A stretch of 13,990 nucleotides of DNA, taken from IMG/VR virus record IMGVR_UViG_2563366982_000004. The stretch is one strand, 5' to 3'. The position numbers were made by a program, and so were the translations under genes. Position 1 is the first letter of the stretch; every line of letters starts with the position of its first letter. This DNA is from a virus. Taxonomy: Duplodnaviria > Heunggongvirae > Uroviricota > Caudoviricetes. Positions 1,127 through 4,059 of this stretch are shown here, one piece after another. Under the pieces are notes generated by a model, which saw only the letters and a program-made list of their open reading frames with translations, did not search any database and was not told the DNA's origin.

Positions 1127-2253
1127 TTACAACGCTACTTTACTCCATCCTTTACCTCGATCATCATGATAACGATCGGTTTGCTGTTGCGTTTTATGAC
1201 CAAGTAGTTTTTGTGTATTTAAACCCTGTTCTTTATACAAACGTTCTGATAAAGACCTTTGTTCATGAAATGTTGCGGGAGAACCTTCACCCCAGTTAAT
1301 TCCTGCTAAATCCCTCGCTTTACTGAAATTCATCGTCAATGTATTGGCTTTAACCTGCGCGCCGCGTTCAGCCTGTGAGGTAGTACGAAAAAAATGTACA
1401 AGGTATGGGCTGACAGCATAGTCACGGCAGCGGGCTACTACATCGCGCAAACTCCATTTAATCGCATTGAGACGCAGGGAAAGCGGGATGGCGATTTTGC
1501 TCCCGGTTTTTTCCTGGATGACATGGAGATGATCATCCCAAATATCGCTAAATTTCATACGCGAGATATCACCTAACCTCTGGCCGGTAACCAGTGCTAA
1601 CAGCATGGCATTCCCCATATAACGATGACTGGCATCAGCGATATCAAAGATTTTTTGCCACTCTTCAAGACTTAACCGTTGTCGGGTAATTTTTCTTCTG
1701 GGCTGTTTGGTGGCTAATGCCGGGTTATAGCCAGGGGGACTTCTCCGTAGTGTTGCGCCTCTTTGAAAACATCAATCAGTACGGAACGAACTACTTGCGC
1801 CATTCTCGGCTGTCCGGCGGCGATATACTCGTCAAGCAACTGGGCTATATCCCTGACATCAACGGCTGAAATTAACTTCAGTCCTGCTCGTTCCCTGAGC
1901 AAGGATACTGGTTTGGCTTTCTGTTTATAGGTGTTGAGCTTTATATCGCCACTTTTCAGTCTGTCTTCCTGGATTGCTTGATAGCGATCTAACCAGGTTG
2001 ACGTTGTGATTGCTTTTCCTTTGCTGGTTGCGATCCTGTCACTGATAGCTAGAATCTGCCGGGTTCTTTGCTCAGCTAGGCGTGTATTGGCCTCAGTGGC
2101 AATAGCAATGGCTTCAGCTTCGTTTGTGCCCAAAGAATGAAACTTCCCGGTCACTGGATGCTTATATCGCCAATAAACTTTATTTACTTTTCTGCTATAG
2201 AGCGGATACAAGTTCGGGACTGAAACATTATTCTTACGTGGTCTGGCTGCCAT
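1127..2253 (-). pseudogene. int: Lambda-family tyrosine integrase, split by a frameshift into an N-terminal ORF (1714..2253) and a C-terminal ORF (1127..1618)
   Basis: N-terminal ORF (MAARPRKNN...GEVPLAITRH) and C-terminal ORF (...LLALVTGQRLGD...FHEQRSLSERLY...LLGHK...RYHDDRG) together match the lambda Int arm-binding and catalytic domains. The two ORFs are in different frames. Reading through the 1619..1713 gap in the C-terminal frame gives a continuous Int-like sequence (...GYNPALATKQPRRKITRQRLSLEEWQKIFDIADASHRYMGNAMLL). The shift maps to a G5 run at 1734..1738. Confidence 0.8.
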
Positions 2254-2384
2254 TACTTAAAATCCTTTGTAGAATAATAGAATCACTTTTCTTAATGACA
2301 GGAGTAACTAATTCTCCAACTAACTCTGCGTCCTCACGTACTCGCCATAGTCGACCTTGTTTCATTGCCGGTGTGTAGTGGCAC
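2234..2384 (-). pseudogene. xis: Excisionase (xis) remnant, 3' end overlapping the int start; 5' end abuts the IS left terminus
   Basis: Minus-strand frame reads ...MKQGRLWRVREDAELVGELVTPVIKKSDSIILQRILSNGSQTT*, resembling the C-terminal two thirds of lambda Xis (W-VRE ... LLKRIRNG). Stop overlaps the int ATG as in lambda. Only ~50 codons remain before the IS end, so an N-terminal loss is likely but not proven. Confidence 0.45.
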
Positions 2385-2456
2385 TGAAGTGGTTTACTGA
2401 ATTTGGCCACCTGAACAGAGGTGATATGCTCACCTCAGAACAACACAGGTGCCATA

Positions 2457-2759
2457 ATGAAAAAAAGAAATTTCAGCGCAGAGTTTAAACGCGAATCCGC
2501 TCAACTGGTCGTTGACCAGAATTACACCGTGGCAGATGCAGCCAGCGCTATGGATGTCGGCCTTTCCACAATGACGCGATGGGTGAAACAATTACGTGAT
2601 GAGCGGCAGGGAAAAACACCAAAAGCCTCCCCTATTACCCCGGAACAAATTGAAATCCGTGAGCTCAGGAAAAAGCTACAACGTATTGAAATGGAAAATG
2701 AAATATTAAAAAAGGCTACCGCGCTCTTGATGTCAGACTCCCTGAACAGTTCTCGATAA
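2457..2759 (+). CDS. IS3-family transposase OrfA (helix-turn-helix / leucine-zipper subunit)
   Basis: [29 protein letters not shown]... is typical IS911/IS3 OrfA. The ORF-track start at 2421 is probably spurious; the ATG at 2457 gives the canonical N-terminus. Slippery A-AAA-AAG lies at 2708..2714 in the orfA frame. Confidence 0.85.
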
Positions 2760-3604
2760 TCGGGAAACTCAGGGCGCGTTATCCTGTGGCCACTCTCTGC
2801 CATGTGTTCGGGGTCCATCGCAGCAGCTACAAATACTGGAAAAACCGTCCTGAAAAGCCAGACGGCAGACGGGCTGTATTACGCAGCCAGGTACTTGAAC
2901 TGCATGGCATCAGCCACGGCTCTGCCGGAGCAAGAAGCATCGCCACAATGGCAACCCAGAGAGGCTACCAGATGGGGCGCTGGCTTGCTGGCAGACTCAT
3001 GAAAGAGCTGGGGCTGGTCAGCTGTCAGCAGCCGACTTACCGGTATAAACGTGGTGGTCATGAACATGTTGCTATCCCTAACTACCTTGAACGGCAGTTC
3101 GCCGTGACCGAGCCAAATCAGGTGTGGTGCGGTGATGTGACCTATATCTGGACGGGTAAGCGCTGGGCGTACCTCGCCGTTGTTCTCGACCTGTTCGCAA
3201 GAAAACCAGTGGGCTGGGCCATGTCGTTCTCGCCGGACAGCAGGCTTACCATGAAAGCACTGGAAATGGCATGGGAAACCCGTGGTAAGCCCGTCGGGGT
3301 GATGTTCCACAGCGATCAAGGCAGTCATTATACGAGCAGGCAGTTCCGGCAGTTACTGTGGAGATACCGGATCAGGCAGAGTATGAGTCGGCGTGGAAAC
3401 TGCTGGGATAACAGCCCAATGGAGCGCTTCTTCAGGAGTCTGAAGAACGAATGGGTGCCGGCGACGGGCTATGTAAGCTTCAGCGATGCAGCTCACGCAA
3501 TAACGGACTATATCGTTGGATATTACAGCGCACTAAGACCGCACGAATATAATGGTGGGTTACCACCAAACGAATCGGAAAATCGATACTGGAAAAAACT
3601 CTAA
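2711..3604 (+). CDS. IS3-family transposase OrfB (DDE catalytic domain), expected to be made as an OrfAB fusion by -1 frameshifting
   Basis: The -1 frame relative to orfA encodes a DDE transposase (WCGDVTYI ... [10 protein letters not shown] ... [12 protein letters not shown]). The ORF track shows this frame from its first ATG (2786..3604). Confidence 0.8.
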
Positions 3605-3636
3605 CTCGGTGGCCAGTTTTTGTTGACCACTTCAAT

Positions 3637-4059
3637 CGCGGTAACTTCATCGCTATCGGCCAGCAGATCCAGCCTTATCTGGAGGACGGAAAATGCTTTC
3701 GCATGGTGCTTAAACCGTGGCGTGAGAAACGCAGTCTTTCCCAGAATGCACTCAGCCATATGTGGTACAGCGAAATCAGTGAATACCTCATCAGCAGGGG
3801 GAAATCGTTCGCTACCGCAGCATGGGTAAAAGATGCTCTCAAACACACATACCTCGGTTATGAAACCAAGGACCTGGTTGATGTCGTAACCGGCGAAATC
3901 ACTACTATCCAGTCGTTACGCCATACCTCCGATCTTGATACCGGAGAGATGTATGTCTTCCTGTGTAAGGTTGAAGCCTGGGCGATGAATATTGGCTGCC
4001 ACCTGACTATTCCGCAGAGCTGCGAGTTCCAGCTGCTGCGCGACAAGCAGGAGGCGTAA
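3637..4059 (+). pseudogene. ninB: NinB-like recombination protein (YbcN-like), 5'-truncated at the IS right end; first in-frame ATG at 3703
   Basis: The frame is open from the IS boundary (RGNFIAIGQQIQPYLEDGKCFRMVLKPWREKRSLSQN...), aligning to lambda NinB from about residue 10 onward (QQI.P...RSLDQN). No start codon or ribosome-binding site remains upstream. Confidence 0.7.

Follow-up and report, generated by a model that had tools for sequence, protein, structure and literature searches.

An ISEc52 copy seated in the tip of an older insertion sequence and the suggested stepwise erosion of a lambdoid prophage remnant at the icd site of Escherichia coli

The 13,990-nucleotide stretch of viral DNA analyzed in this work (Caudoviricetes; IMG/VR record IMGVR_UViG_2563366982_000004), referred to as the window, contains an intact copy of the insertion sequence (IS) ISEc52 between the remains of two phage genes, the excisionase gene xisE and the NinB-like gene ybcN. 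Comparison with related loci suggests that the window is a lambdoid prophage remnant at the icd site of a B2-type Escherichia coli that was eroded stepwise, each step ending at an IS terminus. The successive deletion stages at this one locus are named state A, state B (strain M1/5) and state C (the window), and the IS911-like element that is found at the xis position in state A, and that is distinct from ISEc52, is referred to as the older IS. Complete-genome comparisons covered the 5,426 complete RefSeq E. coli genomes, Pfam profiles were the basis for assigning domains to the window proteins, and PADLOC families were the basis for naming defence candidates. A preliminary description, made from the sequence alone, had explained the missing early region by an IS-mediated deletion, either adjacent to the IS or between two IS copies, rather than by a simple insertion. 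This view is sustained in that both flanking genes are cut at IS-type ends, but the loss cannot be read as one event at this IS: state A already lacks the segment from xis to O, and the right side has shrunk in at least two steps.

Every locus of the series occupies the icd attachment site, with purB-icd on one side and sitABCD-bluR-bluF on the other. The intact relative NZ_OZ040267.1 starts with int, xis, DUF4222, ASCH, exo, bet, gam and kil, continues with a cI-like S24 repressor, a cro-like regulator, ydaT, O and P, and then carries genes for an inverse autotransporter and an alpha/beta hydrolase, a small open reading frame (ORF), ybcN-ninE-ybcO-rusA and a full late region. Between the equivalents of the two window junctions it holds about 13.8 kb of phage DNA, in agreement with the earlier statement that the lambda-type genes between xis and ninB are absent from the window; the repressor and replication functions, also said to be lost, are both missing from the remnant. 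In state A, the truncated xis is joined via the older IS to an O gene without its first 95 nt. The flanking triplets of the older IS are GTG and AAA, without duplication, and the element is itself interrupted by ISEc21 and sometimes by IS30. State A was found in 80 of the 5,426 complete genomes and in many other public assemblies; a locus-specific int fragment occurs in 4,596 index blocks, with state A present in 10 of 10 places among the matches listed. Because state A already joins xis to O, the loss of the immunity region predates the arrival of ISEc52.

The window is 100% identical to state A over positions 1-2384, that is, through nt 11 of the older IS, and diverges from nt 12; it is again 100% identical over positions 3635-13990, from nt 32 of ybcN on. 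The state A DNA that ISEc52 replaces amounts to about 9.9 kb (9,922 bp in OZ039174.1). State B, seen only in strain M1/5, has an identical left junction, including an 11-nt stub of the older IS, and an identical ISEc52. Its right IS end adjoins CTGATAGTC in the middle of the autotransporter gene, which is followed by the hydrolase gene, the small ORF and a full-length ybcN. In state C, the right IS end lies at nt 32 of ybcN, 3,189 bp beyond that of M1/5. None of the relatives examined has xis adjoining ybcN without an IS. Not one of the 5,426 complete genomes contains the right junction of the window, and exact-pattern scans of metagenome and species-representative genome collections gave no match for the left junction, the right junction or the predicted simple-insertion junction.

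On the left side, the 5' end of int and the xis remnant (window positions 2000-2373) are 99.7% identical to intE-xisE of KE58. The homology to xisE stops at 2373, beyond which the sequences are unrelated, and 106 nt corresponding to the 35 N-terminal codons are lost. The remnant aligns with residues 37-77 of a second excisionase of 78 aa (37% amino acid identity); the 49-aa xis fragment had no Pfam match, and no record was found in which the xis-IS fusion ORF is a called gene. The earlier claim that an xis remnant flanks the IS holds for the truncation, with xisE cut to 140 of its 246 nt, but what the IS meets is the 11-nt stub of the older IS and not xis. The ends of the older IS match each other (TGTAGTGG...CCACTACA; in a longer reading, TGTAGTGGCACACTGAATTT... 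and ...GTTGACCACTACA), and its inverted repeat is identical to that of ISEc52 from nt 12 on for about 60 nt. As judged from these alignments, ISEc52 adjoins the stub of the older IS, and the CAC flank is older-IS DNA rather than phage DNA.

On the right side, intact ybcN begins with GTGAACCTACCACAAGATGGCATCAAACTGC followed by ATCGCGG, and exactly 31 nt (10 codons plus 1 nt, the start codon included) are gone from the window, where the first in-frame ATG of the remnant is at 3703. The gene had been described as a ninB lacking about 10 codons and its start. The extent of the truncation was correct, but the name is less secure: the intact gene at the NinB position is called ybcN in RefSeq, and the Pfam NinB profile (PF05772) gave a borderline match to the truncated protein, which scores 23.4 bits where the cut-off is 23.8 (E = 5e-5). 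Comparison of the two junctions with intact relatives thus confirmed both truncations (31 nt of ybcN and 106 nt of xisE) and put the gap between them at about 13.8 kb.

The ends of the IS are fixed to the base, because its full 1250 bp are 100% identical to ISEc52 at six other loci, which are unrelated E. coli sites. Imperfect 27-nt inverted repeats with TG...CA ends are present on the left (IRL, 2385-2411, TGAAGTGGTTTACTGAATTTGGCCACC) and on the right (IRR, 3608-3634, GGTGGCCAGTTTTTGTTGACCACTTCA), and the terminal bases are TGAAGTGG at the left end and CCACTTCA at the right end. The element shares 94.1% identity with RefSeq-annotated IS911, and ISEc52 shares 87-92% identity with the older IS. 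By sequence identity, the window element is therefore assigned to ISEc52 and not to IS911 proper. The preliminary description was right about its position at the early-region gap, and its term "IS911-like" is still fair, but the identity is that of ISEc52, a name that rests on the copies annotated in RefSeq. An A AAA AAG (A6G) slippery motif lies in the correct phase at 2708-2714, and a -1 shift would produce a 382-aa OrfAB without stop codons, so that the window copy looks functional. ISEc52 reaches about 25 copies per genome.

Read across the element, the left flank GTGTGTAGTGGCAC is followed by the IS end TGAAGTGG, and the right IS end CCACTTCA is followed by the flank ATCGCGGTAAC (in a wider reading, ...CCGGTGTGTAGTGGCAC precedes the IS and ATCGCGGTAACTTC... 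follows it). The 3-bp flanks are thus CAC and ATC. Both triplets agree with those given earlier, now with fixed termini, except that CAC had been taken for phage DNA; no 3-bp duplication is present at the exact ends. That simple insertions of this kind make 3-bp repeats was also confirmed: among eight simple ISEc52 insertions used as controls, seven carry perfect duplications (GTT, GGG, ATC, GTG, GTT, AAC and GAA) and each of these seven interrupts a single gene, whereas the eighth is imperfect (CAG/CAC). It is because seven of eight simple insertions carry a duplication that its absence at the window IS is meaningful. This absence reflects rearrangement and is no argument against membership of the IS3 family. 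The window copy resembles the ISEc52/IS911 elements, whose simple insertions carry 3-bp duplications, in its 1250 bp, its TG...CA ends, its 27-nt repeats and its orfA/orfB frameshift, and it differs in lacking the duplication because its right side, and probably also the DNA in which it first landed, has been rearranged. At locus L016, an independent ISEc52 insertion has likewise duplicated the triplet ATC, and a third ISEc52 copy adjoins CATCGCGATAAC, which resembles the ATCGCGGTAAC of ybcN. Other ISEc52 copies without a duplication are those at L038 2621-3870 in M1/5 (TTC/ATT) and at L017 351-1600 (GTA/CAT). The L017 copy separates the oppositely oriented halves of an autotransporter gene, and rearranged ISEc52 copies are common.

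A look-up with the 118-aa ybcN remnant retrieved the exact junction of the IS with ATCGCGG in other assemblies. In OZ040526.1 (L006 6683-7932), the left flank of the ISEc52 copy that joins ybcN is a truncated bluF, a gene whose usual place is some 20 kb downstream, with the orientation reversed. In GCA_964047345.1 (L007 6683-7932), the left flank of the corresponding copy is near mtfA, and this mtfA-side flank sits in M1/5 on a different, oppositely oriented ISEc52 copy. Both arrangements are as predicted for an inversion between two ISEc52 copies, and on this comparison ISEc52 copies mark rearrangement breakpoints in the clade of the window. The inversions between ISEc52 copies implied for the sister genomes span about 20 kb and about 0.9 Mb. 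Furthermore, simple ISEc52 insertions recur in this prophage family, in ybcO, upstream of ybcN, and in the hydrolase, autotransporter, lysozyme and ASCH genes. The otherwise intact prophage of NZ_OZ040267.1 contains two copies in inverted orientation, in the ASCH gene and in ybcO (L035 6421-7670; L002 9792-11041); both carry a GTT duplication, and the identity of the two triplets is probably a coincidence.

Three steps would account for these data. As the comparison with state A shows, the older IS first came to link nt 140 of xisE to nt 96 of O without a duplication, which removed the recombination, N/immunity and cII-position genes and produced the widespread state A. As the 11-nt stub suggests, ISEc52, oriented like the older IS, would then have entered the left inverted repeat of that element between nt 11 and nt 12. 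In the third step, between end points that are seen directly in the two genomes, the DNA to the right of ISEc52 would have been lost up to the middle of the inverse autotransporter gene, as in M1/5, and in the lineage of the window a further 3,189 bp would have followed, up to nt 31 of ybcN.

For the third step, homologous recombination between two ISEc52 copies is preferred over a deletion made by the transposase, with about an even chance of being correct, and both fit every observation. A second, directly oriented ISEc52 would enter the ATC in ybcN (and, earlier, the CTG in the autotransporter gene), and homologous recombination with the xis-side copy would excise the interval together with one IS copy. 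The one IS that remains would then have the left flank of the first copy and the right flank of the second, and the hybrid flanks of the single window IS (CAC/ATC) are consistent with this. The route is favored because ISEc52 inserts repeatedly in this prophage family, one genome having two copies in a single prophage, because rearrangements between copies are evident in the clade, and because transposition by copy-out-paste-in restores the donor and is not in itself a cause of flank deletion. According to a review of IS3-family transposition, the donor is regenerated by copy-out-paste-in and an adjacent deletion needs an extra reaction (10.1101/2023.06.07.543989).

Several observations weigh against recombination between two copies. 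Other IS copies had been proposed as possible partners, and ISEc52 is indeed a multi-copy element, but a precursor carrying two copies in direct orientation was not encountered. The left junction predicted for a simple insertion in ybcN (CATCAAACTGCATC+TGAAGTGGTTTAC; for the autotransporter site, the prediction is GGTGTTAAATCTG+TGAAGTGGTTTAC) was absent from the 5,426 complete genomes by BLAST and from the metagenome scan. The right junction predicted for the original insertion into the older inverted repeat (GACCACTTCA+CACACTGAATTTGG) was not seen as a contiguous sequence by BLAST among the 6 matches listed of the 18 records that covered at least 80% of the query; these 6 are either joins in two pieces between neighboring IS copies or an IRR-GAG-IRL fossil in one piece on a plasmid. 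Nested deletions with one fixed IS end are a classic signature of transposase-made adjacent deletions as well, and both window junctions were found on one IS copy in no independent assembly.

The transposase-made deletion is possible but doubtful. In this alternative, an IRR-IRL junction (in a tandem ISEc52 dimer, or beside the end of the older IS) or a "sloppy" one-ended transfer would attack nearby targets, and the IS would stay in place while the DNA on its right was deleted, first to CTG in the autotransporter gene and then to ATC in ybcN. It agrees with this that the deletions begin exactly at the right IS terminus, that the IS is kept and no duplication is present, that M1/5 and the window are nested with a fixed left end, and that a two-copy precursor was not found. 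The duplication of ATC at L016 and the likeness of CATCGCGATAAC to ATCGCGGTAAC suggest a genuine integration target, although such a resemblance is equally expected from a simple second insertion. The older inverted repeat shares its sub-terminal sequence with ISEc52 from nt 12 on, where the transposase would putatively bind. A fossil IRR-GAG-IRL junction of IS911-like ends was identified on the E. coli plasmid NZ_CP062900.1 (L037 1585-1625), in which the head-to-tail joint reads ...GACCACTTCA-GAG-TGAAGTGGCAC... and, by its sequence, has the IRR-3 bp-IRL geometry of an IS circle, a dimer junction or an insertion targeted to an inverted repeat (IR). Among related systems, chromosomal IR-IR junctions of IS30, a copy-out-paste-in element, give deletions that start at the edge of the inverted repeat (PMC9333248), and for IS911 both IS dimers and IR-targeted insertion are reported (PMC9333248, PMC7986276); both count in favor of this route. 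On the other hand, copy-out-paste-in normally leaves the donor regenerated and its flanks undeleted, and the stub is an IRL inside an IRL and not the IRR-IRL abutment that IR-targeting makes. It is unlikely that ISEc52 was drawn to the end of the older IS through putative binding of its transposase to the shared sub-terminal repeat and that the abnormal IS-IS joint then drove the nested adjacent deletions; if this were so, the locus would record in nature how the "targeted" IS911 pathway works on a heterologous IS and erodes a prophage.

An assembly artefact, in which two real junctions located on different ISEc52 copies, as in L006 and L007, were mis-joined through the 1.25-kb repeat, is very unlikely. 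It would draw on the up to about 25 ISEc52 copies per genome, on the absence of the right junction from all complete RefSeq genomes, on the different right side of the M1/5 left junction, and on those long contigs among the matches listed that carry the right junction (L006, L007 and a further two resembling L007), none of which has the xis stub on its left. On the other side, each of the two junctions is exact and has been confirmed independently, the two inverted forms derive most simply from a direct deletion product, and an artefact in the join would leave both truncations and the absence of the early region unaffected. Hardly any weight can be given to an IS-independent deletion (illegitimate or by microhomology) that joined xis to ybcN before ISEc52 entered the scar, or to the gene conversion of the older IS to ISEc52: an IS-less deletion does exist only 3 nt away (ybcN nt 28/29) in another prophage (L008), but a later insertion would have brought a 3-bp duplication, and M1/5 shares the left junction and has a different right one. 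The absent duplication and the right junction of M1/5 lead to the rejection of deletion followed by insertion at the scar, and gene conversion is rejected in view of an element that is pure ISEc52 from the first to the last base with the older tip beside it, an outcome that conversion in 88%-identical DNA would not yield. Two-copy recombination remains the preferred route for the losses to the right of ISEc52.

Table 1. Positions in the window of the IS, its two truncated neighbors and the adjoining phage genes.
Feature	Position	Strand	Basis
intE pseudogene, lambda-type integrase, icd site	1127-2253	-	Pfam Arm-DNA-bind_1 and Phage_integrase on two fragments
xisE excisionase remnant, 3' 140 nt of the 246-nt gene	2234-2373	-	Homology to intact KE58 xisE
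Stub TGTAGTGGCAC, 11 nt, nt 1-11 of the left inverted repeat of the older IS	2374-2384	+	Match to state A; absent from intact xisE
ISEc52, IS3 family, IS911-like, intact, 1250 bp	2385-3634	+	Inverted repeats, identity to other copies, domains
orfA	2457-2759	+	HTH_Tnp_1, E 6e-14
orfB	ends 3604	+	rve, E 1e-31
ybcN (NinB-like) remnant without start codon	3635-4059	+	Comparison with intact ybcN in M1/5
Surviving nin/late-regulation block ninE, ybcO, rusA, ylcG, quuD (antiterminator Q)	4059-5477	+	ORFs; Pfam NinE, YbcO; RefSeq annotation of identical M1/5 DNA

In the remnant, the repressor, O and P, a working integrase, a complete xis and most lysis and morphogenesis genes are missing. Relative to the intact KE58 gene, intE is broken into ORFs of 163 and 179 aa by a 1-nt deletion near position 1735, and it is marked as "frameshifted" by RefSeq in M1/5 and in the state A genomes. 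Lacking a repressor and O/P, and left with a frameshifted int and half of xis, the remnant cannot excise, replicate or confer immunity and is fixed in the chromosome.

Repeated hits fall within the first 31 nt of ybcN. In two other prophages, IS629/IS1203-like ends adjoin nt 10/11 and nt 21/22, and in a third prophage (L008) the IS-less deletion at nt 28/29 lies 3 nt from the window junction; the loci that cover this 5' end are L012 (about 1-60), L013 (about 6720-6800) and L008 (about 7920-7935). The 5' end of ybcN may be a local hot spot, or this may be chance. A scan for consensus promoters at the joint of the right IS end and ybcN detected no hybrid outward promoter. As a side possibility, the IS might now be the sole source of transcription into ninE-ybcO-rusA-quuD; the activation of rusA by an IS is known in K-12.

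A second large deletion is visible farther downstream. In a 1,196-aa ORF (window 7553-11143, + strand), the first 66 codons of the lysozyme gene run in frame into J, the tail-tip gene; the break lies near 7751/7752, and Rz, the terminase and the head and tail genes are lost. All state A relatives share the fusion, which occurs in 1,740 index blocks. Other genes of the window or of its relatives are not part of the phage core. The 285-aa HNH-type protein encoded at window 1-858 (+ strand) matches the PADLOC candidate defence family PDC-M01B (E = 1e-114), and in relatives an AAA_15/AAA_21 ATPase gene lies directly upstream of it. By its sequence, this pair looks like a candidate two-gene anti-phage system located between icd and the prophage int. 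Furthermore, an intact OmpC/NmpC-like porin gene lies between Q and the holin gene (window 5666-6748, - strand), and in relatives (L029 16383-19832) sitABCD-type ABC transporter genes directly follow the tail-fibre genes. Since the porin and transporter genes are present, the remnant keeps cargo while losing phage functions.

Cryptic lambdoid prophages that have decayed through IS elements are well known in E. coli, such as e14 at icd and DLP12 in K-12, and prophage deletions associated with IS629 are known in O157. The window resembles e14 in its icd site with intE/xisE, which is 88% identical to K-12 e14 over int-xis, but its gene content differs; it resembles DLP12 in its nin block, ybcN-ninE-ybcO-rusA-ylcG-quuD-porin-essD. 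As in these cryptic prophages, genes for immunity and replication have been lost beside IS elements; unlike them, the window has its ISEc52 inserted within the tip of an older IS, and public genomes provide a graded series of state A, M1/5 and the window. A further likeness is to the IR-targeting of IS30 and IS911, in that the end of a related IS lies exactly at the window insertion point and the deletions start at the edge of an inverted repeat. In classical IR-targeting, the IRR abuts the IRL with a spacer of 2-3 bp, as in the plasmid fossil of L037. In contrast, the window has one IRL set 11 nt into another IRL of like orientation, and the role of the transposase is putative. Only two features are mildly unusual, namely, an IS nested 11 nt into the inverted repeat of an older, related IS and the stepwise series that can be read from the relatives.

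The decay of cryptic prophages by IS elements is a textbook process, the IS is a catalogued one, and little is added here to general biology. The value of the locus lies in a cleanly resolved and ordered series that leads from an intact prophage to state A, to M1/5, to the window and to its inverted derivatives. This series shows that an absent target duplication can conceal several events and that an apparent host or phage flank can be the stub of an earlier IS. Furthermore, the multi-copy ISEc52 marks deletion and inversion breakpoints in B2-type E. coli, which matters for assembly quality and for typing schemes at this locus.

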